DNA of 64,000 bases from a virus, in the UHGV virus genome UHGV-1372779; one strand, written 5' to 3'. The notes beneath the pieces were generated by a model. The model ran no database searches. It was given only the letters and a program-made list of their open reading frames with translations, and was not told where the DNA came from. The number at the start of each line of letters is the position of its first letter. The first letter of the stretch is position 1. Shown here piece after piece: positions 4,306 through 60,078 of this stretch. The translations under genes were made by a program, and so were the position numbers.

Positions 4306-5514
4306 TTACTCTACAGTACTAATAAATTCACCTTCATCCTTAGTATTATATAATATCTCTCTAACTAATAACTTCCCAGCCTCAATTGCAGCCTCATCAG
4401 TACCTTCTTTAAATAACTCTTCTAATCTTTCAGTCACCTTTGGTCTGAATATAATCTCATTCTTCTCAATCTCAGCTGCTTGTTTAGTGGAACCTCCTTT
4501 TTCCATTAGGACAGGGATTCCTTTGTTAGTGACTACTCCTTCAACATTGATGTTGTGTTTTCTGGCGTGTAATGCTCCGATTGGTAGGAGGTTTACATCG
4601 TTTTCTTTGTCTTTTAGATATTTTCTGTAATGAGTGATGAATTTGGCTCCTTTTTTCCCAAATGTTATATAACTATTACCTCCTAATATTCCGGACTGCT
4701 GAAGTTGTTTTCTATTATTAAACATATCAGTAGATGATGCTTGAATAGCTCTTTGGTCACTTGCTTCTCCTAGAATATCCTGTATTCCAGATTGCCAGAC
4801 CTTAGCTTGCCCAATTTTTTTATTAGCTTTCTTTCTAGCTCTGTTAGAAAGTAATCCATATTTTTTATTAGAATATTGCCCAGCCTTTTGAATATCTGCA
4901 CCTGTTCCTGTATAAGATGAATTACTTACAGCATTTTGGTCAATATCTATTGTATCTGTTTTCTTTCCAAATGCATTATTTACTAGTCCTAAGGCTCCTA
5001 AATTAAAAAAAGAGCTTCCTAGTATTGCATCAGTAGTAGTCATTTTATCTGTTCCAATTCCTACTTTTTCTAAAGCACTTCCTGCTAATTTACCAGCCTT
5101 CATTATTCCTCCTACAACCATTCCTGCAGGGCCAAAAGACATTGCTACATTAGAAATTGTATCATAAGCAGAATCAAGCCCTTGAGTTAGATTACCTTTT
5201 TTACCTGAATAATTTTTTTGGAAGACTTTAAAATTGGATAACATATCTAATCCAGCTCCTATAGCTCCCATAGGATTTGCACCTCCACCTGTTGCTCCAG
5301 TTGTTTCAGCAACTGAAGTAGTAGAGGTATTAATCCCTAATACGGAATTACCAAGATTTCTGAGTCTATCTCCTAAGGTAAAGTTAGGTTTAATAGAATT
5401 TAAACTTGCTCCTTGAGCAGCCATAGCATTTAAAGTTAAGGCTGGAGTTGTTGCTGTGAGTTGGGGATCTGTAAGAACCCCTCCCCACTGTAATTTAAAT
5501 ATTATATGTTTCAT
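4306..5514 (-). CDS. Gly-rich virion protein (402 aa), paralogue-like to the preceding gene.
   Basis: Similar Gly/Ala/Ser-rich composition; ATG/TAA overlap with the upstream 1556-aa gene at 5514. Confidence 0.45.
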   Translation of the reverse strand: MKHIIFKLQWGGVLTDPQLTATTPALTLNAMAAQGASLNSIKPNFTLGDRLRNLGNSVLGINTSTTSVAETTGATGGGANPMGAIGAGLDMLSNFKVFQKNYSGKKGNLTQGLDSAYDTISNVAMSFGPAGMVVGGIMKAGKLAGSALEKVGIGTDKMTTTDAILGSSFFNLGALGLVNNAFGKKTDTIDIDQNAVSNSSYTGTGADIQKAGQYSNKKYGLLSNRARKKANKKIGQAKVWQSGIQDILGEASDQRAIQASSTDMFNNRKQLQQSGILGGNSYITFGKKGAKFITHYRKYLKDKENDVNLLPIGALHARKHNINVEGVVTNKGIPVLMEKGGSTKQAAEIEKNEIIFRPKVTERLEELFKEGTDEAAIEAGKLLVREILYNTKDEGEFISTVE

Positions 5515-8500
5515 TAGTTATAACTTGGTGTATATATAGTTTGTATTGCTGTTATAATTGGCTTATTTTTACCATCATATTTAAATCTCACTCTCATAAA
5601 TTTATCCCTAGGTCTAATTTCCATGAATGGAAGATCTTCTACTGTTACATCTTCTCCATTTTCATAAGTTCTTCTATGAGCTCTCATAGGATCGATTTCT
5701 AAGTAGAATAAGTCTTCTTTATATACAGAATTTCCTAAGATATTTCCCCAAACCTTAATATCCCTAACATCCATGCTCTTTCTCATAGTATATTGGTTTA
5801 ATTTTCTATCTTTAAAGAATTCTGCATTTAATTGATCTAAATATAAAGGTTCTCCAGTATCATCATCATATTGAAGTTTTCCTTTTTTATAATATAATTT
5901 TGGATCGAAGGTTATAATATATTCTGGAACAAATTCTCCATCCTCTTCTTCTTTACCTAATGAAGAAGTGCTAAAATTAGGATCTGATTGATATTTATAA
6001 GAATTTTCTTTACAATTACTAAAAGCATAGGCATCTCCTATTACATCATAGAGAATCTCTACAGGAGGAACATTATTAGATAATATTTGAAAGTTGTCAA
6101 ATATTTTATGTCTGGCTCCTTCTTTATTAACTATAAATTCTAGTTCGAATGGATATTGTCTATCATACCACACACAGTTTTTAATCTCTGTTTGGTTGTC
6201 AATTATTCCTGCCACTCCATGTTTCCAGAAGTATGTAAGTTCATGAGGTTCTTGGAGTTCTGGTATATTATTTAAATAAGATAATCTAATAGTTAAAGTA
6301 TCTCTAAATACTTGTCCTGATACTTCTTTATCTTTATCCACTCCTTCTCTATTTATTTCTACCTCAATATCTAGAGTAGCATAATATTTTCCTTCCAAAA
6401 CATATTTTTTATAGGTATTTTCTGATTGTTTAAACACTATTCTACTTTCTTTGTCAGAAATAGCTTCTATATAAAAATCGTCATTATCATTAGTTTGTCC
6501 TTCATCAGGTTCAATAAATTTATATTTTAAAGATCTAACTTCATTTATATCAATAGAATCTAGCTTAAGACTTAATTCTCCAATTCCTATATCTTTAGTA
6601 TCAGAACTTAACTTAGGAAACTCAACTCCGGGATAAACTACTTCTCTTAGATAATTAGAACTGTATTTATCCCCAGAATTATCATAGCAATTTGATAAAA
6701 CAATTCCCCTCGAAGTGTAGCTATCACTCCAACAAGAGGAAACAGATGATATATTTTTAGCAGAGTCTTTATCATAACTAAAATAAATATTATTAATATT
6801 CTCAGATAATAAAGGAATCCAAGAATATCTGGTTGTCCACAAATTTAATTTTTCATTAAAGCATATATTCCATCCTATTGAATTAATATCATTTCCTAAA
6901 TTATCAGTAGATTTAATATCATCATAGAATGTAAACATTATATCATATTTAAATGCGTTATAATGAGATTTAACATTTCTTATTCCTAACAACGGAAGTA
7001 TTTCCTTTTCAGTTAAAGTTATATTATCATTTAAATAAGATTGTATTTTAAAGTCAGAAATGGTTTCAAAAGATCTTCCATCTGTTCTCCAAATTCTCTT
7101 CCCTACTGTATCTACTCCATATACAAATCTTTCTGATTTAACTATAGAGTCCTTCCATTGTGATCCAAATGTCTTAGACAACATTGTAGGTCTTTCTGGT
7201 AATACTTTATTAGAGTTAATAAAAACCTCTTCTTTATTTTGCCCTTCTCCTAATGGAACTTTTTCATTAACTGGTAATATTCCTACTCCATGTTCAAATA
7301 CTACCAATAAATTGCTATACCATTCTAATATATCAGTTATGGCTCCAAATTCTTTGTTATAATCACTATAATTATTTAATCTAAATATTCTATAAGAATT
7401 TTTAAAGGCATCGGTAGTATATATATCTGAATATATTATTCTATTAGATAGCTCATTTTTTATATAAGGAACATCGGGGAGGATAAAGTTATTCTTCTCA
7501 GAAACTGTGGAGTTAAATCCTGCATTAAATAAAGTAGAGTCAGGAATTTTATAAGATCCATCAGATTGAAATCCATTTATAGGAGCAAAAGTTCTAGGAT
7601 GGCCTACTAACCCCATCTCTGATCCATTAGAGTCATCTTCTACTCTAAGAGATAAATTTATATTGCTCATACATTTAAAGGTTACCCAGTGTCCTATATT
7701 TACAGCATTAACATCTCCTCTATTTATCTCAGCACATTCTTCTAAATCTAAAGCTCCATTTTCAAATCCTGAGTAATGATCTTTCCATGTATTTTGGTTT
7801 ATAAAATCACTGTTAATGGGAGCTTCTGGATCTTGAAAATTCCTACACATTCTATGAGTAAAGTTTCCAATGAAACAATCTCCTCTATAGCAGACAATAA
7901 AATCATCTACAAATCCATATTCTGTTCTATCACATATAGGATAAAAGGGATCGGTTATATTACCTCTTATCTTAAAATAATCCTTTAAAGAATTTTCATT
8001 ATAACCATATGTAAGCACATTGAATATACTTAAAGGATCATTATATCCTTCTATTCCTACATAAGGCCCCCATTCTCCTCTTAATAAATTAGTAGCACTC
8101 TTATTAGGATTTTCTGATTTTAAGTAAGATACTCTATAAGCTTCTTCAGCAGCACCTGCTCTAGAAGAGAATTCCATAGTTCCAGAAGAAGAAAGTTGTA
8201 CACTATCTCCAACATAGGTTAAAGTAGATGTAGTTAAATATTCTGAAGTATTACTAGTATATCCATTTACATAATAGTGCCTAGAATTTTCAAACGAAGG
8301 TTCTAAAACATCGTTCTCTGGCTTAATAGGAGCAGCTACAACTTCATAAGGTATGGCAGAAAATAATTGTGAATATAATTCAGAGTTTAATTCTGCTTCC
8401 GGAATTATTGCAGCATTTATGCCGCAGGAGTCAATAGTTCTTAATCTGTCCTCAAATTCATGATCTAGTACTCTTTCATTAGTTAAAAATGATTCCGTTA

Positions 8501-51829: not shown

Positions 51830-52635
51830 TTACATCCTCCAGTTTTTATTTTATTATTAAATTTACTTAGAGTTTTAGTACAGAATGTATTACAAGTACT
51901 TATCCTTTCTAGCAATCTCTGTGCCTCAAAGAAATTACATTGAGAGATTAATCTTCTTATAAGCTCCAAAGCCATCCATACTATATCTCTATTTCTATAT
52001 ATATTATTTAAATCATTATCTTTATATAAACAGGCTTCAAATAAATTATTATATAATATAAATTTAATCATATCCTCATAACATTTTTCTAGTTTTCCTA
52101 TTAAGAACAATTGTTCTTCAATTCCTACTAGATTTATATTATTTAAATGTTCTTTTATATAATATATATCAATTTTATGGGCTGTATAAATTCCAGATAC
52201 TATATCTAATTGAAGATACTCCTGTGAATCTGTATCATATACTATATATGATCCATCAAATAGAACTTCTTCACTTCTAGCTGCACCTGCCACAGTTTCT
52301 GCAACAAAGTTTTTCATATAATTTAAAGTAGGAAGAACTAAATGGTCAACTGTAAACCATCCATCTACTGTAGATTTATATTCTAACTTATAAGCTTCAT
52401 ATCTAGCATCTGATCCAACCACATATTTAAATCCTGTAAGTTTATTATCTGATAATTTATTATAATTTACTAAATCTAAAAATATTACATCTGATGTTCT
52501 ATAATACTCTGAAGACACCCCAGACTGTTCTGGCATAAATTTTAAATACCCTATACCTGTTGTATCTTTTAAAGTAAACCCAGTAGTTCCATTTTCAGAA
52601 AAGGTTGCTTTTAAGTTTATATTTACGTTTCTCAT
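51823..52635 (-). CDS. Hypothetical protein (270 aa).
   Basis: ORF track. Confidence 0.45.
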   Translation of the reverse strand: MRNVNINLKATFSENGTTGFTLKDTTGIGYLKFMPEQSGVSSEYYRTSDVIFLDLVNYNKLSDNKLTGFKYVVGSDARYEAYKLEYKSTVDGWFTVDHLVLPTLNYMKNFVAETVAGAARSEEVLFDGSYIVYDTDSQEYLQLDIVSGIYTAHKIDIYYIKEHLNNINLVGIEEQLFLIGKLEKCYEDMIKFILYNNLFEACLYKDNDLNNIYRNRDIVWMALELIRRLISQCNFFEAQRLLERISTCNTFCTKTLSKFNNKIKTGGCNC

Positions 52636-54851
52636 TAGTATTTAACTTCATTATTATGAGGATTATTATCAAACATCTGTGCTAATTCAAGATCAACCTT
52701 TTTATTGTCAACCTCAATCTTACTCTTATTAAATTCATCTTGTAATTTAACTTTAGCCCATTCAATTTTATTTTTCTCTGAATCATCCTGAGCTTGTTGT
52801 AATTGTTGCTGAGCTTGTTGTAATTGTTGTTGCATTTGTTGAAGTTGCTGTTGAAGCTCTTTAATAACTTGATCAGATTGTTCAAGATTTTGTTGCATTT
52901 GTTGTATCTGTCCAGCTTCTTCTTTTCTTCTCTTAATAGCTTCAAGACTTTTTTGTTTATAATCGGTAAGACTTTTACATCCAACTGTTGATAAAACTAC
53001 TTCTGCATCAACTTGTCCAGCTTTAACTAATTCAAGATTTAATTCTCTAATACTTTCCATATCTCTAACAGCCTCTTGTCCATCTGCTATATGTATATCA
53101 AAGTCTGTAAGAGTATAATATTCTGGTAGAGCAGTAAAGATTTTTTGTCCTTTATCTCCTAATATAATAGCTCCAGTCAATCCATCCTTGTAAACTATTT
53201 TCCCTAAATTTAATGCATCTAACATTAGCTCTTTTAATATTAGATTCATATTAGCAAAATAAGACTTAGTTATTATAAAGGACTGTTCCATACCTACTTT
53301 AACATTGTGAACAGCATCTTTTTGCTCTATTCCCCCAATCATTTCTCTAAATACTCCTGTAATACTAGATGCTGAAAGTTCTACTCTCTCTAATGATATA
53401 TCAATGGCTTGAATTGCATTAAGAGGAACTGTATCATCATATCCATTATATATTGTATTAACAGGTGCAACTCCAGGTTCTATTTGAGAAAAATCTAATG
53501 GTGCGAATCCTTGTTTTTTATATCCTACGAATTTAAGTAATCTCATAGTCTCATCTTCGTCTAGCCAAGTTGGAATTTTACTTACATCAATGTATCCTCC
53601 TTTAGATCCTGAATTGGCTATAAGATTTTCTCTATGGAAATGTAAAATATTATACATATCTTGAAGATCAGCAGTAGCTAAGACTAATGAAAATGGTTGA
53701 TTTTGTCTAGTAGTCATAAATACTCCATTGATTGATAAAGTACAATGTTTCTTATTATCTACTGATCTAATAACATTTATATCTTTCTTTCTTATGATAT
53801 AAATATCTTCTCCAATTTTGGCATCAGAATATCTATGTTCTACACCATGTTCATCAGTATCTATATATTCAATCTCATGAACTACTATATCTCTTCTTGA
53901 TGCTGTATATATAGAATAATTTCCATCCCAAGTAGGAGATACTTCTAATCCTCCTAAAACTCCAGTACCTAATTCTGTGTTATTATCAGTTACAGCACTT
54001 ACTGGACCAGTAGATCTAATTACATAAACTTGTCCATCTTGACTTCCATGTCTAATTAATCCTTCTTCAAGTTTTTTCCTAGACTCATCGTCTAATTCTT
54101 TATGATATTTGTGAAGGATTTGTTCTGGAGTCATGTAATATCTACATACTGCTCTAGGTGAATCTTTTAAATAATAACTATTAGGATTTCTTTCAATAAA
54201 AGTATTTATAGGATTTAATGTTTCTAATTCTATATTATTTCCACTTTCACTAGGATACTCTTTATAATAAGCTGTACCTGTTATCAATAAGTCTGTAAAT
54301 AAGATTCTAGATTTAGTTCTTAAATCTATATTTCTAGATTGAGATAAATATGTAATAAGATTCTGAGCAGTTATTTCATACTCTGAAATGAAGTTCTTAT
54401 TTAAATCATTAACTAAATTATTTAAATATTCCTCTGTTAAAGGGTCAGTGGGAGGAGTTCCTTGAAGTCCAAATTTAGTTAATATTTGATTTTGAAGATC
54501 TTTGATATATATGTCTCTTATTTGGGAATCTATATATAATTGTTTTTCTCTAAATATATTAGATAATGTATTAGAATCTTTACAAGATATTTGAATATTT
54601 AAAGGTAAATCTAAAAAGTGTCCCACCAATGCATCTACATGTTTTTTAATTAATGGAATAAATTTAATTTGTGTGGGAGTTCCTATTCCATAATTTTCTT
54701 CTAGATGTTTATATTGATCTAAGTCCATTTTACCATGATAATAATTATAGGCTTTCTTTAAAGCTATCTTATCATAAACAAGATCCGAGATTGTATGATT
54801 TATTTTCTGAATTCTCTTGTCCCGCTCTTCTGTTTCTTTTTTTGTAGTCAT
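52635..54851 (-). CDS. Putative portal protein (738 aa) with a Gln-rich coiled-coil C-terminus.
   Basis: Size and position immediately downstream of the large terminase. Confidence 0.4.
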   Translation of the reverse strand: MTTKKETEERDKRIQKINHTISDLVYDKIALKKAYNYYHGKMDLDQYKHLEENYGIGTPTQIKFIPLIKKHVDALVGHFLDLPLNIQISCKDSNTLSNIFREKQLYIDSQIRDIYIKDLQNQILTKFGLQGTPPTDPLTEEYLNNLVNDLNKNFISEYEITAQNLITYLSQSRNIDLRTKSRILFTDLLITGTAYYKEYPSESGNNIELETLNPINTFIERNPNSYYLKDSPRAVCRYYMTPEQILHKYHKELDDESRKKLEEGLIRHGSQDGQVYVIRSTGPVSAVTDNNTELGTGVLGGLEVSPTWDGNYSIYTASRRDIVVHEIEYIDTDEHGVEHRYSDAKIGEDIYIIRKKDINVIRSVDNKKHCTLSINGVFMTTRQNQPFSLVLATADLQDMYNILHFHRENLIANSGSKGGYIDVSKIPTWLDEDETMRLLKFVGYKKQGFAPLDFSQIEPGVAPVNTIYNGYDDTVPLNAIQAIDISLERVELSASSITGVFREMIGGIEQKDAVHNVKVGMEQSFIITKSYFANMNLILKELMLDALNLGKIVYKDGLTGAIILGDKGQKIFTALPEYYTLTDFDIHIADGQEAVRDMESIRELNLELVKAGQVDAEVVLSTVGCKSLTDYKQKSLEAIKRRKEEAGQIQQMQQNLEQSDQVIKELQQQLQQMQQQLQQAQQQLQQAQDDSEKNKIEWAKVKLQDEFNKSKIEVDNKKVDLELAQMFDNNPHNNEVKY

Positions 54852-55128
54852 TTAAGTCTATTTTTTCTCCTACACTAAATTTAGTTAAATTGAGGTTTCT
54901 ATTTAAGAGATCCTCTCTTACATAGTCTAGAAACTCATCTATTGAAGTACATTGTACATAGATTTTACATGTAGGAGTAAGAAAATCTTTATTCATATAA
55001 AGACTAAGAATAAATCCATCCTCTTTTTCTTCTATCTTCATTTTTCCTACATATATTGCTTCATATACTTCAAGTATTATATCTTCTATTTTGCAAATTA
55101 GCTCTTGCTCTTGCGACTTTGTCATCAT
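54772..55128 (-). CDS. Hypothetical protein (118 aa).
   Basis: ORF track. Confidence 0.4.
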   Translation of the reverse strand: MMTKSQEQELICKIEDIILEVYEAIYVGKMKIEEKEDGFILSLYMNKDFLTPTCKIYVQCTSIDEFLDYVREDLLNRNLNLTKFSVGEKIDLNDYKKRNRRAGQENSENKSYNLGSCL

Positions 55129-56731
55129 TTATATCATATTGTAAATTAGCTAAATCTTGTAAATCTTGAATTGGATCAGGCTTAACTCCATAGTGTTTAA
55201 TCCCATTATCATCATACCAATATCCAAAAGGTTTCATCTTATTTGCATTCATTTTCTTTGCAACAGCTCCCCATGTTCTCATCTCTTGATCACCTATTTC
55301 ACACATCCCCATCGCAGCAATAATATCGAATTTTCTCTTGTCTTCAAAAGAGTATTTACTTAACTCTTCTAACATAGCTAAATCATCTATTGTAAAGCAA
55401 TATTCCAACACAAAATCAGCTATAAGTTCTAGATAATATTCAATTGTTTGTTTAGATGGGTATACCCCAAACATATCAGTATTAGTTACTTTATTAGTAG
55501 GGTTAACTGAGCTTGGCCGCCTCATTAAAAGACCTTGCTTTTTTCTATCCTTAAAATGGTTTACAATAGCAGTTCTTGAACTTTCAAGTACAGCTTGACA
55601 ACCATAAAATTCTAATAATTTAATTGTTTGATTATATGCTTCTTTAATATTTCTAGGACGATCTTTATATATAGCCACATATTTAGGAGGCTCCAATCCA
55701 AATGTTCTTCTTTTAATTACTAAACAGTAATCAGAAACATCTTTTTGACCAGTCGATTGATCTATACCTTGGTCAATAGAGTCAATTCCTGCTACATACA
55801 AATTCTTAAACAGAGCTCCATTCTCATCATGTCTGGGAAGCTCATATATTCTAACTTTGCCATTAGGAGAAGGTAAAAATTTGAGAATGTCTTGATTTAA
55901 ATCTTTACTATAGGAGTAGTCTACTATTCCAACTTTAGGTTTAATTCCGGAACCATGAACTTTAATATCCGTTATTCTAGCTGCTATAGCTACTGAATCA
56001 AAGATATTATCACCCTGTCTAGAAAGTGCTTCATCTGGGTTGTAACAATATTCAGCACAATATGTAAGATAACCTTCTGGAGATCCAGCTTTGGCATCTC
56101 TTTTCTTATTATAGTACTCAATCGCTTTTTTCTTATTACATACTCCTCTTTTATCTATAATTCCATCTATAATAACTACACTATATGCAGGAATAAAATA
56201 AGATGTAACTACATATTCACCATCTGCCGTGTGATTATGTTTATATGGAAGTATATCATATTCTTTTGGGTTATAAAATAATTCATTTAATCCAGCTACG
56301 GCAGGACCTTCATCACCTCCAGTACCATATCCTATCTTAAATCCTATTCTAGATCCACCCACTATAATAAGAGCATCACCTTGAATCCATTTTTTAATCA
56401 AAACTGGATCAGATCCAACCTCTTCATATAATAACATCTCAGCTCTATCACCTCTAACCTTACTAGGTTTATCAGCAACAATTCCAGTAATCATAGATCC
56501 AAAACCAGACTCATTACCTTCTCTATCTTTCTTAGAGGCTTTTTTCTGAGTAGCTGTATTAACAGCTTGTCTAAGATGTTTAAACCCTCCTTCTGTTTCT
56601 GTATTTAAATAGTCTAATTGTCTCCAACATTTTTCTAATGTCTTAGAAACAAATAGATCTGTGAATGCTGTGTATATAGCTTGTTGTCTTCTCTTAACTG
56701 TATAAAGATTTACACCTAAACAGGCTCCCAT
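55070..56731 (-). CDS. terL: Terminase large subunit, exon 2, containing Walker B and the RNaseH-like nuclease domain.
   Basis: MLLYEE (Walker B hhhhDE) and the nuclease motif LYVAGIDSIDQGIDQSTGQKDVSDYCLVI. Confidence 0.7.
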   Translation of the reverse strand: MGACLGVNLYTVKRRQQAIYTAFTDLFVSKTLEKCWRQLDYLNTETEGGFKHLRQAVNTATQKKASKKDREGNESGFGSMITGIVADKPSKVRGDRAEMLLYEEVGSDPVLIKKWIQGDALIIVGGSRIGFKIGYGTGGDEGPAVAGLNELFYNPKEYDILPYKHNHTADGEYVVTSYFIPAYSVVIIDGIIDKRGVCNKKKAIEYYNKKRDAKAGSPEGYLTYCAEYCYNPDEALSRQGDNIFDSVAIAARITDIKVHGSGIKPKVGIVDYSYSKDLNQDILKFLPSPNGKVRIYELPRHDENGALFKNLYVAGIDSIDQGIDQSTGQKDVSDYCLVIKRRTFGLEPPKYVAIYKDRPRNIKEAYNQTIKLLEFYGCQAVLESSRTAIVNHFKDRKKQGLLMRRPSSVNPTNKVTNTDMFGVYPSKQTIEYYLELIADFVLEYCFTIDDLAMLEELSKYSFEDKRKFDIIAAMGMCEIGDQEMRTWGAVAKKMNANKMKPFGYWYDDNGIKHYGVKPDPIQDLQDLANLQYDINDDKVARARANLQNRRYNT

Positions 56732-56734
56732 TTC

Positions 56735-57771
56735 TGACCATCCTCATGGTCTTGTTGTCCTATAAGCTTTTTATCCTATAGTTCTGGGAGTTTCCTCCTT
56801 ACTTATTACCGAAATAGAAATAATAAGATATTCTGATTTAATCATCAGACAGTTCAGCGTACATTTTCACCCAAACAATGGGGCCGACACTCTTGGAGAT
56901 ATTATTTCAATCTCTACGCGTTACGGTGGTCAATTAATAATTGACTTACCTCGGTATTAACATAGTAATTAAATTTATTGAACTTTCTACTCATATAAAA
57001 ATTAGAATTATCATATAGTAAATGGAATATTTTAGAAACCTCCTTCTTTGATGATGTACTTATTCTATACATATCATCTCTAGATAAATAATTTAAGTTG
57101 ATTTTAATATTATTTAATCTAAAGAAATCTATTATATCTTCTAATATAGAAGAATATTTAGAACAGATCTCAAACTTAAATCTAAACCTATCTGATTTCC
57201 CTTTTTCAGAAGCAATCCATCCAATAATAGATCCATCTCCATCAAAATACCCTCTAATAAAATGAGGAATGAGATCTTGAGAAATATTAGGAATTTTTAA
57301 TTCTTTATAAGTTTTATTATAACCAAATCCTATATCATTTAGAGAATTTACCAATATGGTGCTATTTATATCAACTCCTTCTTGAGGTCTTCCAATATAG
57401 GTTTTATCTCCTCTTCCTTTAATTTCATAAGAATCAATATGAAACCTTCTACTATTAGGAGAAATATATTTAGATATTAACTCTATAATGTCCCTGTCTT
57501 CTTCACATAATTTAACTCTAAAAGTTTTTCTTTTCTCATCAATAGACCCATCAGCAGCAAAAAATCCTAATAGGTATGCTTGAATTTCAGTTACAATATT
57601 ATTAAAAAATTCATGTCTAACTTCTCTTTTACTTCCATTATTAGTATATAATGGACAAATCTTGTTAAGAATCACTTCTTGGTCATTTACATTCATAATT
57701 TTTATATTTTTAATCGTGTTATTTTTTAATCACCTTAGCCTTCACCGATTTTGCCGGATTTAAAATATACA
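56735..57771 (-). mobile_element. Intron (probably group I) carrying a LAGLIDADG homing endonuclease; it interrupts terL within the Walker A region.
   Basis: The flanks are non-coding with multiple stops and contain GC-richer structured segments and hairpins (CTTATTATTTCTATTTCGGTAATAAG; TCTGATGATTAAATCAGA). The homing-endonuclease ORF is in a different frame from exon 2 and is separated from exon 1 by stops. Confidence 0.55.
56914..57696 (-). CDS. LAGLIDADG homing endonuclease (double-motif).
   Basis: Two motifs, LLGFFAADGSI and IRGYFDGDGSI. Confidence 0.8.
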   Translation of the reverse strand: MNVNDQEVILNKICPLYTNNGSKREVRHEFFNNIVTEIQAYLLGFFAADGSIDEKRKTFRVKLCEEDRDIIELISKYISPNSRRFHIDSYEIKGRGDKTYIGRPQEGVDINSTILVNSLNDIGFGYNKTYKELKIPNISQDLIPHFIRGYFDGDGSIIGWIASEKGKSDRFRFKFEICSKYSSILEDIIDFFRLNNIKINLNYLSRDDMYRISTSSKKEVSKIFHLLYDNSNFYMSRKFNKFNYYVNTEVSQLLIDHRNA

Positions 57772-58617
57772 TTACTGTATATTGGGACAGGCATTTATCC
57801 CTCTAGACTTTAATGCGAAGACATTTAGTCCTAATTTTTTACAAAGTTCCACATAGTGGAAATATTTATATTGTTCTGCAATAAATGTAGGAAATGAATC
57901 ATTTCTTACAGTTACCTTAGCCTTAGAATCAGATTTAAGAACAGCAGGAGAATCCATTCTATAGAAATTTAAATAGAAGTAATTATCTCCTGTTAAAGTA
58001 TATCCATTATATGTATAACCATATATACATCTTCTTTGTTGCTCTAACCAATATTTAACATAAGAAGGACCATTTATCTCAAATGAACTATACTTGCCAG
58101 TAGCTTCTTTAGTCATAGCAGGCTCTCTAAACCAATCTGGATCAAAATCTAATCCCTGTGTTTCAGTGATTGGTCTATATCCAGTTAATTCATAAGATAA
58201 ATCTGGGTCAAAATATTCTATTGGATCATCTATTCTCACATCCCAATTTGTGAACTTAACATCTTCTCCATTTACATGATATAACTTTCTAAATTCTTCA
58301 TTATCAAAGTTTTCTCTAGTCTGATCTGCAATTTCTAAAGATTGTCTTATGTAATCATTATCGTACAAAACTAAATCTTCTTCTTTTGGATCATCTAATA
58401 AATGCTCTGGAATGTGATAAATAGTTGCTATTTCTTCATCTACTAAATCTTGAGAGTTTATTTTATCTAATAATTCCTGTGTTGTTTCTCTTTTACGATA
58501 AGCTCTTTTAGGCTTAGATTCCTTTTCGAGTTTAGCTTTTTCCCTGGCTTTCTTCTCTTCCTCTTTCTTTCTAAGCTTTTCAGCATTACCTTTAGCCCCA
58601 AAAGTCTTCTTAGCCAT
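57772..58617 (-). CDS. terL: Terminase large subunit, exon 1 (N-terminal part, ending at the start of a lambda-like Walker A, …ALKSR); the first ~100 aa are Lys/Glu-rich.
   Basis: It ends with KSRG, resembling the lambda gpA P-loop KSARVGYS. Exon 2 begins near (E)MGAC, and Walker B lies about 95 aa further on. Confidence 0.5.
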   Translation of the reverse strand: MAKKTFGAKGNAEKLRKKEEEKKAREKAKLEKESKPKRAYRKRETTQELLDKINSQDLVDEEIATIYHIPEHLLDDPKEEDLVLYDNDYIRQSLEIADQTRENFDNEEFRKLYHVNGEDVKFTNWDVRIDDPIEYFDPDLSYELTGYRPITETQGLDFDPDWFREPAMTKEATGKYSSFEINGPSYVKYWLEQQRRCIYGYTYNGYTLTGDNYFYLNFYRMDSPAVLKSDSKAKVTVRNDSFPTFIAEQYKYFHYVELCKKLGLNVFALKSRGINACPNIQ

Positions 58618-58619
58618 AA

Positions 58620-59198
58620 TTAATCAAATAAACCAGGAGTCTGATCTCCTTTGATTTTACTTTGCTTTTCTAATGCCTTCTTATATCTAATCTCAGCATC
58701 TTTAATTTCATCTAATAATGGCCCAACACTTTTAGCTTCAGCTATTACATCTTTAGCCTTAAACACAGGACTTCCATCTTCTTTTCTCTCATTTAGATCT
58801 ACCAAATAATCAAAATATATAGTTAATTTGTCTACTATATTATATACTGATTTAAGAAGTTTCCAAGTCCTATCATTCTCCTTCATCTCTTTAAAAGCTC
58901 TACAAGCTTTTCTAAATGTTTCATCATCAAACTCAGCTTGAGTCAGTTTAGAGTCTTTTAAAGCCATCTTATGTCTATCCTGCTCAGGATAATCAGCATA
59001 AGGAGATTTCCAATTAAGCATTAGGTAAATATATTTAAATTCCCTAAATGCTCTTAATTTATATCTCCCTTCTACATCCTCAACACATTTATTTCTTTCT
59101 GGTTCTATTAATGCCTCAAACTCTTCCGTTAGTAAAATCGCAGGTTCTACTAACTCTAATTGTCCAGTAGCATTATTATACTGAAAAAAGTCTAACAT
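58620..59198 (-). CDS. Possible terminase small subunit (192 aa).
   Basis: Position immediately upstream of terL only. Confidence 0.25.
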   Translation of the reverse strand: MLDFFQYNNATGQLELVEPAILLTEEFEALIEPERNKCVEDVEGRYKLRAFREFKYIYLMLNWKSPYADYPEQDRHKMALKDSKLTQAEFDDETFRKACRAFKEMKENDRTWKLLKSVYNIVDKLTIYFDYLVDLNERKEDGSPVFKAKDVIAEAKSVGPLLDEIKDAEIRYKKALEKQSKIKGDQTPGLFD

Positions 59199-59264
59199 AT
59201 ATCATTATTTAAATTAAAAAAGAGTAACATAATTTTTATCTAAAAATTACATTACTCCTTAAAG

Positions 59265-59516
59265 TTATTCACTGGCTTTAACCAGTTCTAAATCTTTAGT
59301 TGAAATCACCATTTCATGAGGAACTTCTTCCTTATCAAACCACAAGCACTTCATTCCTAGAAGCACTTTATTGCAATCAGTTACTTTTTGTGTAATAAGC
59401 ATATTTATTGGAGTATTCTGTAATTCAGAATGTTTAATTCTTACTATATCTCCTGGTTTGAACATTACGTCTTTTTTATTCTCATAGTACATATTACTCT
59501 TCTTTTTTAAATCCAT
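59265..59516 (-). CDS. Hypothetical protein (83 aa).
   Basis: ORF track. Confidence 0.4.
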   Translation of the reverse strand: MDLKKKSNMYYENKKDVMFKPGDIVRIKHSELQNTPINMLITQKVTDCNKVLLGMKCLWFDKEEVPHEMVISTKDLELVKASE

Positions 59517-60078
59517 AAACTACTACATTACCTCCTTGAATAATATACCATGTATCATCTCCTTCATCAGTAGTTACTGGAAGAGATCTTTCTCCTCCTT
59601 TTATATACATGATTTCCATTCCAGGTTTTATATTTTTAACATCAGGTCCAACTTCTAAAACTAAACCAGTTCCAATAAATCTCATATCCTCCATATCTTC
59701 AGTAGTTCCAGATTTAGAATTATATACTTTATCTCTTACTAAAATTATACCACTATTTCCAACTTCTGGAGCTAAATATGGACTTCTTTCATAGGGTTTA
59801 AACATAATAAAATTTCCTGTTACTTGAAGACACCAGTTTTTGCTCAATCTTTCCTCATATAGAGCTTTTTGTTTTCCATATTCTGTTTGTTGAACCTCTT
59901 CAATGTTTCTTCTTTTTCTTTCTGCCTCTAAAGAATTCCTTTTATTATCCTCTCTTAGTTGTTCTAAGGTCATTGGGATATTATTAAGTTCACAATCTTT
60001 AAGAGTTTTTCTTTCTAAATCAGTCATAATTTCATTAAATTCTTTACTCATATTCATTAATTTTAAATCATTAAACAT
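59494..60078 (-). CDS. GroES/Cpn10-like co-chaperonin domain protein with an N-terminal coiled-coil extension.
   Basis: The C-terminal 100 aa follow the GroES pattern (GIILV…IGTGLVLEVGPD…KPGMEIMY…WYIIQGGNVVVYGF). Confidence 0.35.
   Translation of the reverse strand: MFNDLKLMNMSKEFNEIMTDLERKTLKDCELNNIPMTLEQLREDNKRNSLEAERKRRNIEEVQQTEYGKQKALYEERLSKNWCLQVTGNFIMFKPYERSPYLAPEVGNSGIILVRDKVYNSKSGTTEDMEDMRFIGTGLVLEVGPDVKNIKPGMEIMYIKGGERSLPVTTDEGDDTWYIIQGGNVVVYGFKKEE

Follow-up and report, generated by a model that had tools for sequence, protein, structure and literature searches.

Evidence for a mobile group I intron with a LAGLIDADG endonuclease in the large terminase gene of a crAss-like phage

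How can a phage make a working large terminase subunit (TerL) when its gene, terL, is broken into separate reading frames? The question is raised by the viral genome UHGV-1372779, of which a stretch of 64,000 nucleotides (nt), called the window here, was analysed. Gene callers give its terL region as three unrelated open reading frames (ORFs) without domain matches, all on the minus strand: 58617..57772 (281 amino acids (aa), ending ...ALKSRGINACPNIQ, also read as ...NVFALKSRGINACPNIQ), 57696..56914 (260 aa) and 56731..55070 (553 aa, starting MGACLGV..., MGACLGVNLYTV...). We conclude, with a probability of about 0.93, that terL of this large crAss-like phage is interrupted by a group I intron, mobile and similar to the IA type of phages, that carries a LAGLIDADG endonuclease gene. 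Unless it is spliced, terL would be expected to be non-functional.

The two outer ORFs are parts of one crAss-like TerL, as judged from tblastn matches to uncultured crAss-like phages (cr1_1 and others); two closer matches are unannotated gut phage records. A first-pass annotation, made from the sequence alone, had described the layout of the locus, and most of that description holds. The three ORFs are found in the ORF list where it had put them. The first and the middle ORF share a frame (58617-57696 = 921 = 3x307) and are separated by four stops (TAA, TAA, TGA, TGA), and the last ORF lies in a different frame (58617-56731 = 1886). The non-coding flanks of the middle ORF, estimated at about 75 and 180 nt, measure 75 and 182 nt. 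These flanks had been called GC-rich, which is only weakly true (35.5% GC in the 3' flank and 28% in the 5' flank, vs 30.3% for the window); they had also been called hairpin-rich, and the 3' 226 nt do fold with z = -2.7. The middle ORF had been read as a double-motif LAGLIDADG protein: Pfam LAGLIDADG_3 matches it in two stretches (1.8e-9), LAGLIDADG_1 covers residues 148-243, its translation contains the two motifs as LLGFFAADGS and FIRGYFDGDGS, and PHROG 4645 ('endonuclease') matches at 1.1e-32.

Exon junction and insertion site

The splice sites were placed by protein and DNA alignment to intronless alleles and by the U(-1)/omega-G rule. Exon 1 (58617..57797, minus strand) ends ...GCA TTA AAG TCT AGA GGG AU, with U57797 as its last base, 25 nt ahead of the stop codon of its ORF. 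Exon 2 (56744..55070, minus strand) starts A GGA UGG UCA GAA AUG, 13 nt ahead of the ATG of the second terminase ORF, and contains Walker B (...AEMLLYEE) and the nuclease domain. The intron between them (57796..56745, minus strand) is 1052 nt long and runs from AAAUGCC... to ...GACCAUG, with omega-G at 56745. The frame upstream of ATG 56731 stays open for G-W-S-E and exon 1 has an I after SRG; the insertion point is between the second and third bases of this Ile codon (K-S-R-G-I|G-W-S-E-M). Moving both splice sites by 1 nt leaves the product unchanged, because the intron and exon 2 both begin with A. The first-pass annotation had drawn the intron from 56735 to 57771 and the junction as KSR|EMGAC, so that its ends were off by 25 nt (5') and 10 nt (3') and G-I-G-W-S had been left out.

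Joined at these sites, the exons are predicted to encode an 831-aa TerL reading ...ALKSRGI|GWSEMGAC... (ALKSRGIGWSEMGACLGV), with the junction peptides SRGIGWSEMGAC and GIGWSEMGACLGVNLYTVK and, at the nucleotide level, the junction ...GCATTAAAGTCTAGAGGGAT|AGGATGGTCAGAAATGGGAGCC.... Alignment to uninterrupted homologs, the approach that had been advocated for locating the junction, gives a clear answer: the 758-aa TerL of MT835470.1 (L001), which reads ...ALKARGVGFSEIAASLGV..., aligns with the spliced product without a gap across ALKSRGIGWSEMGACLGV (46% identity over 697 residues), and the junction lies elsewhere than had been supposed. When the junction region was searched against a database, two proteins came up, P0001 and P0002 (84% and 81% identical), that are uninterrupted here and read exactly ALKSRGIGWSEMGAC. 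At the DNA level, the intronless relative L129 has CGTGGTAT|TGGATGGTCAGAAATGGG where the window exons have GGGAT|AGGATGGTCAGAAATGGG. On the spliced protein, PHROG 6681 (terminase large subunit) gives one continuous match (168-773, E=8e-69).

The interrupted segment is strongly conserved, since K274, R276, G277, G279, S281 and E282 of L-K-S-R-G-x-G-x-S-E are invariant in 13 homologs. It is a deviant Walker A-like motif that lacks the canonical GK[ST] lysine, and we take it to resemble KSARVGYSK of lambda gpA. An AlphaFold model of P0001 shows a strand (270-272), a loop and a helix (280-294) around it, and the best PDB folds retrieved by Foldseek are ATPase domains of large terminases, those of P74-26, T4 gp17, HK97 and Sf6 (E ~6e-6, probability 1.0). 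A Walker B-like ...LLYEE follows about 100 residues after the segment. At the sequence level, neither the spliced TerL nor a profile retrieved a terminase from the PDB. The invariant K-S-R-G-I-G-W-S, the strand-loop-helix topology and the match of the predicted fold to terminase ATPases support the earlier proposal that the insertion lies inside the Walker A loop (P-loop) of TerL, as far as a modelled structure can place it.

Ribozyme structure and family

Three copies of the element were compared, that of the window and introns 1 and 2 of MT835539.1 (L002), and they yielded conserved blocks. An exact scan of IMG/VR with CCAAGAGT-N(12-42)-GAAAATGTACGC returned at least 120 contigs, and a family alignment was made from 38 diverse members with a contiguous core, the window being excluded. 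RNAalifold recovers nine helices from these 38 members (P3, P4, P5, P6, P6a, P7.1, P8, P9 and P9.1), and P7 was added to them. In the full family structure 97.4% of the cells are paired and 43 of the 57 pairs have changed on both sides; no shuffle out of 500 came up to this, and slid controls are 32-41% paired. Covariation is found at 6 of the 7 pairs of P3, 4 of the 5 pairs of P7.1 (family helix 5) and all 7 pairs of P9.1 (family helix 8), whose loop is invariant, and 10 of the 11 pairs of P6/P6a (family helix 3) have changed on both sides; P4 and P8 are family helices 2 and 6. Some members have an inner arm in P7.1; no second, independent P7.2 was seen.

P7 has the family form G/A/C-(bulged base)-GCGUA with UACGC-C/U/G. 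Its outer pair covaries across the bulge (GC 20, AU 16, CG 2) and its five inner pairs are invariant. This bulged geometry is as expected of the guanosine-binding helix, a role predicted for P7 here. The J8/7-P7' element GAAAAUGUACGC, with AAAAUG as J8/7, is invariant in the 38 homologs as well; because it was part of the pattern that collected them, its invariance is not independent evidence. A covariance model (R1), built without the window, has one match in the window, at 56744..56993 on the minus strand, with 98.4 bits and E=4.2e-30, and the orthologous L002 intron 1 reaches the same 98 bits. If the family is a coherent clade, its marks would be a single P7.1, AUAAAAAG as an invariant loop L9.1, the tail GAUAACA and the GCGUA/UACGC form of P7.

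The window copy can be read base by base in this framework (all coordinates on the minus strand). P1 (57784..57801) is formed by the exon sequence GGGAU (57801..57797) and the guide GUCCC (57788..57784), with U57797·G57788 at the splice site; a possible P10 pairs CCU (57791..57789) with AGG of exon 2 (56744..56742). P1 is kept in same-site orthologs by two-sided changes from A-U to G-C (GGGGU/GCCCU in L056, GGGGC/GCCCU in L002 intron 1), and the splice-site pair of L002 intron 1 is C-G, not U·G. The P2 hairpin (57764..57783; AAUAUAC-AGUAAU-GUAUAUU, 7/7 pairs) has different sequences in its place in the orthologs, CUUAC.../...GUAAG (L056) and CUAUAAG/CUUAUAG (L002 intron 1). P3 has 6/6 pairs between CCGGCA (57752..57757) and UGUCGG (56884..56889), and P4 has 6/6 pairs between UCGGUG (57743..57748), preceded by J3/4 AAA, and UACCGA (56956..56951). 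The 5' strands of P5 and P5a (57728..57740; GGC and GGUGAUU) pair with GUU (56961..56959) and AAUUACU (56970..56964), the 3' strands of P5a, P5 and P4 being contiguous at 56951..56970 (AAUUACU AU GUU AA UACCGA). The 5' strands of P3, P4, P5 and P5a (intron positions 40-69) are located about 760 nt upstream of the rest of the core, ahead of the endonuclease ORF; at the position of the P5/P5a 5' strand, the ORF-less L068 reads GUGAUUAAUCAC.

On the 3' side, P6 and P6a (56925..56950) consist of GGU/ACC and the hairpin GUCAAUU-AUU-AAUUGAC. The 5' strand of P7, the putative guanosine-binding helix, is A-(C bulge)-GCGUA (56915..56921) and pairs with UACGCU (56861..56856); in intron positions, A876 pairs with U941, C877 is bulged and pairing resumes with G878-C940. 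It is followed by the P7.1 hairpin (56896..56914; GAGAU-UGAAAUAAU-AUCUC) and a conserved CAAGAG, then by P8 (56870..56882; CCCA-UUGUU-UGGG) and by J8/7 with the 3' strand of P7 (56856..56869; UGAAAAUG, UACGCU). P9 (56784..56852) uses CUG/CAG to close three hairpins, P9a (UCUGAU/AUCAGA), P9b (CUUAUUA/UAAUAAG) and P9c (GGAG-GAAA-CUCC, with a GNRA tetraloop), an extended form that L025 shares. The P9.1 hairpin and the 3' tail (56745..56781) read CUAUAGG-AUAAAAAG-CUUAUAG and GACAACAAGACCAUG, ending in omega-G; the tail likewise ends in G in L056, L068, L008 and both L002 introns, the junctions of which were checked against the host coding frame. P7 crosses P3 to make a pseudoknot, and every core helix is intact in the window. 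Inspection by eye had suggested CCG/CGG for P4 and a long-range pairing of CGGUG with CACCG; the family alignment gave P3, P4 and P6 instead, and both suggestions were rejected.

Intron class and splice sites had been left open by the first-pass annotation. The exact sites are those given above and the class is group I; the hairpin between P7 and P3', together with a 3' end like that of Twort and T4 introns, would by analogy make the subgroup IA-like. If the intron follows the established group I route (PMC3984707), the pre-mRNA would fold into P1, P2, the P3-P8 and P4-P6 domains, the P3/P7 pseudoknot, P7.1 and the extended P9/P9.1. An exogenous guanosine bound in P7 would attack after U57797, and the freed 3'-OH of exon 1 would attack after G56745, the exons being held on the guide by P1 and P10. 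The outcome would be a continuous terL mRNA for one 831-aa TerL. Catalysis and splicing in vivo are inferred here from that route.

Rfam behaves differently with a copy that lacks the ORF. The ORF-less intron of L056, located at the identical terL position (...SRGV|GFSEIGA...), is matched full-length by RF00028 (Intron_gpI), over model positions 1-253, with 50.8 bits and E=3.4e-12, where the gathering score is 50. This alignment places P1, P2, P3, P4, P5, P6, P8 and P9 just as the present derivation does, and the L056 equivalent of J8/7-P7' is aligned to the group I consensus gAAGAUAUAGUCu. RF00028 reaches its threshold on ORF-less members only, under lax filters, and in gathering mode Rfam found no intron in 13 family loci, returning one tRNA only; routine annotation probably misses most members of the family. 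Searches of GenBank phages were of little help: blastn in 'distant' mode with the 3' core gave seven weak, partial and uninformative matches, and megablast of 54000-60000 gave no match.

The endonuclease ORF sits in the P5a loop, and from intron position 827 on it overlaps the core. Its last 19 codons, including the stop (56970..56914), cover P5a', P5', P4', P6/P6a, J6/7 and the 5' strand of P7. The encoded ...YYVNTEV... is conserved in other copies with the ORF in L5a (L008, L078, L002 intron 1), and the likely cause is a constraint that the RNA puts on the protein.

Several observations weigh against a group I intron that splices itself and sits inside terL's P-loop. An exact search of JGI metagenome contigs with the spliced junction gave no match, and neither did a search of IMG/VR with a degenerate form of it, so that these searches provide neither transcript evidence nor an identical intronless allele. 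The covariance-model scan that the first-pass annotation had proposed for the interval 56700-57800 gave no group I or group II match when run with Rfam. In E-value mode Rfam found none at E<=10 in 56500-58000 or in 56720-56960, and in gathering mode it found none in the whole window; the blank is due to the 757-nt L5a loop, mostly endonuclease ORF, which splits the two halves of the core. P10 has only 3 bp (AGG/CCU), the outer end of P3 has one U/C mismatch and P8 has only 4 bp in the window. With the core occupied by the ORF's 3' end from P5a' to P7, translation might disturb folding and folding might disturb translation. Finally, the Walker A assignment comes from predicted topology and conservation, and the confidence of the P0001 model is low overall (mean pLDDT 59; 74-87 in the ATPase part).

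The overlap of ORF and core is one reason to consider that the intron requires a protein cofactor, either the LAGLIDADG protein that it encodes, in the role of a maturase, or a host chaperone, and that TerL output is gated by this factor; the intron might then not be autocatalytic in physiological conditions. Translation and folding would indeed call for coordination, some phage introns splice in vivo and not in vitro (PMC11878797), and LAGLIDADG maturases exist, including one bacterial case (PMC3984707). We nevertheless consider such a requirement unlikely, because all core elements are present and conserved and because ORF-less members (L056, L068 and many more), at the same and at other sites, must splice without any intron-encoded protein.

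Distribution among relatives and mobility

The intron is absent from some relatives and present in others. L001 has no terL intron. L129 (ENA ERZ16268081 scaffold_36; 84%-identical) lacks the Walker A intron and has two other family introns in terL. P0021 and L002 have an intron at the window's site, and L002 (MT835539.1) has a second family intron, at G-T-G|G, besides the one at the Walker A site. A sister lineage is inserted 4 nt downstream (...RGVG|FSE...) in L008, L028, L057 and L068. This presence/absence polymorphism is the pattern that homing elements produce. For the window intron, the 260-aa LAGLIDADG enzyme would presumably cut the intronless terL of co-infecting relatives, and repair would copy the intron in (homing); judged from sequence, a candidate cleavage target is the intronless L129 site ...CGTGGTATTGGATGGTCAGAAATGGG... 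(CTTAAATCTCGTGGTATTGGATGGTCAGAAATGGGCGC).

Further details of these loci were recorded. The introns of L129 lie in regions 5675-5940 and 7315-7525; one, at ...GYGTG|G... (G-T-G|G-D), has a 272-aa LAGLIDADG ORF at 4844-5662, and the other is near ...MGMCE|IGDQEM.... In the L129 clade, at least three or four different positions of terL can thus hold an intron. Insertion is after base 2 of the GI/GV codon in the window, L056 and L002 intron 1, and after the following Gly codon in the sister lineage, where P1 (GUCGGU/GYCGAC) runs straight into P3 with no P2 hairpin. In L002 (MT835539.1 29000-35000; 900-5400), in-frame TAG occurs throughout both the terL exons and the ORF of the endonuclease, a sign of TAG recoding. 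In a small L002 ORF, 563..847, a duplicated MAEEIKRKRGRPKKIPTVIDD lies on either side of a piece of the intron endonuclease (EKRKTLRVELQKGDSEI...ISEDARLYQTKEKDFM); the duplication may be a misassembly or a rearrangement, and the record is flagged UNVERIFIED.

The family defined by CCAAGAGU...GAAAAUGUACGC is very abundant, with at least 120 contigs, which measure between 4 and 300 kb, and it appears to occupy a variety of host genes. In many members the endonuclease ORF apparently occupies the loop of P1 instead of L5a, after the 5' splice site and before the guide GCCG (for example L002 3839-4054 and upstream, and loci with ...UGCCG-[hairpin]-UUA upstream of P3). It appears from these sequences that the endonuclease ORF was acquired, or moved, independently within one ribozyme family. 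A broader proposal is that the at least 120 IMG/VR contigs represent a clade spread over many genes and phage lineages that may match no described subgroup, in which the ORF has moved between L1 and L5a, sister lineages have settled 4 nt apart, and splicing and the onset of packaging could be coupled to translation of the endonuclease or to a maturase. We regard this proposal as a whole as speculative and rather doubtful. If the overlap of ORF and core did couple these steps, packaging onset could depend on endonuclease translation or on maturase activity.

Could the intron instead be decayed and unable to splice, so that terL is a pseudogene of a defective phage, or could the arrangement be an assembly artefact? 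Rfam is blank on the window copy, which would fit. The identical 260-aa protein is found on 10 contigs, however, and six of them come from different ENA assemblies or samples (ERZ27261176 is one sample with the contig) and reach 185.9 kb. The same arrangement thus recurs in different samples and on contigs of up to 186 kb, which makes an artefact or a dead phage less likely. In addition, no core helix is broken, the model score of 98 bits is that of L002 intron 1, and the endonuclease and both exons are open. Decay or artefact is in our view very improbable.

Phage genes split by endonuclease insertion are known, and terL could in principle be such a gene, divided by a free-standing endonuclease gene into halves that are made separately and reassemble with no RNA splicing. 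It would agree with this that gene callers give three genes and that exon 2 has an in-frame ATG at 56731. The break falls, however, inside the invariant K-S-R-G-x-G-x-S-E loop, and the separate ORFs would lose I-G-W-S-E and gain INACPNIQ. A complete ribozyme supported by covariation surrounds the ORF, and the joined exons reproduce the relative's sequence exactly. A split terminase is for these reasons scarcely credible. An intein, typical of TerL in Delta-group crAss-like phages (PMC7886860), or a group II intron, of which phages have examples (PMC12350094), can be set aside as the first-pass annotation had done for the intein, given the four stops after exon 1, the change of frame, the absence of any Hint/intein Pfam match, reverse-transcriptase ORF or group II RNA family match, and the fit of the sequence to a group I model.

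Relation to known introns and neighbouring genes

The terL intron probably has its closest counterparts in the IA2-type phage introns Staphylococcus phage Twort orf142-I2 and T4 td, nrdB and sunY. With these it presumably shares P1-P2, a short P4-P6, one additional hairpin (P7.1) that separates P7 from P3', and a 3' end laid out as CUGAAC-[P9]-GAA-[P9.1]-(G)AUAACAnnnUG. We take the J8/7-P7' of the Twort/T4 introns to be of the AAGAUAUAGUC type, corresponding to GAAAAUGUACGC here, and the window P2 (AUAUACAGUAAUGUAUAU) closely resembles the Twort P2. Twort/T4-type introns likewise have their ORF in a peripheral loop and an essential phage gene as target. The window intron differs in having a single P7.1 between P7 and P3', vs P7.1 plus P7.2 in the IA2 type, and in its P7, which is GCGUA/UACGC vs GACUA/UAGUC in the Twort/T4 type. 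The inteins of the mycobacteriophage TerL P-loop are presumably a parallel case, in which a selfish element homes into the same most conserved nucleotide-binding motif; those inteins are in frame and splice at the protein level, whereas the window has stops and a frame shift.

The finding belongs to a known kind of element, since terminase group I introns and crAss-like introns are already documented. Terminases are conserved phage targets suited to group I intron homing (PMC3984707), and the TerL group I introns of Bastillevirinae (e.g. SIOphi) splice in vitro and in vivo (PMC11878797). Like the window intron, the latter are mostly IA-like, and in most of them a nuclease-coding loop splits the ribozyme and defeats covariance models on one side (PMC11878797). 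Bastillevirinae are Bacillus myoviruses whose TerL endonucleases are HNH/VSR, whereas the window comes from a Bacteroidota-associated crAss-like phage with a LAGLIDADG enzyme, known from sequence.

Probably closer relatives are the large (145-192 kb) crAss-like phages, in which group I introns and inteins are dense and were found via endonuclease domains (PMC7886860). The source contig, at 185.9 kb, falls in this size class, and its size and TerL similarity suggest a tentative place in the Zeta group. The Zeta and Delta crAss-like phages belong to the same phage order and have LAGLIDADG-bearing group I introns in core genes (PMC7886860; PMC12386605). Stop-codon recoding is seen in relatives, as with the in-frame TAG of L002. 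The crAss-like intron studies give no RNA structure or exact splice sites, and they describe TerL of Delta phages with inteins, not introns (PMC7886860; PMC12386605). The present analysis contributes exact splice sites, a secondary structure resolved to single bases and a model for an abundant family of phage introns that Rfam misses by default. The splice sites restore the 831-aa TerL, a marker protein for crAss-like phage phylogeny, and the consensus structure and model allow similar split genes to be repaired in gut viromes. The locus is a further case of homing elements that strike a phage enzyme in its most conserved catalytic motif, and opens no new question in that respect.

Three minor features of the terL region were also noted. 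TerL has an N-terminal extension of about 125 aa (58245..58617, minus strand) that is rich in lysine and glutamate, poorly conserved and modelled with low confidence, and that is absent or different in L001 and several homologs. Downstream of terL lies a portal gene (52635..54851, minus strand), listed as Pfam P22_portal in the gene table of the source contig, with a glutamine-rich repeat end, QQQLQQMQQQLQQAQQQLQQAQ. A 118-aa ORF (54772..55128, minus strand) overlaps terL at its end and the portal gene at its start.

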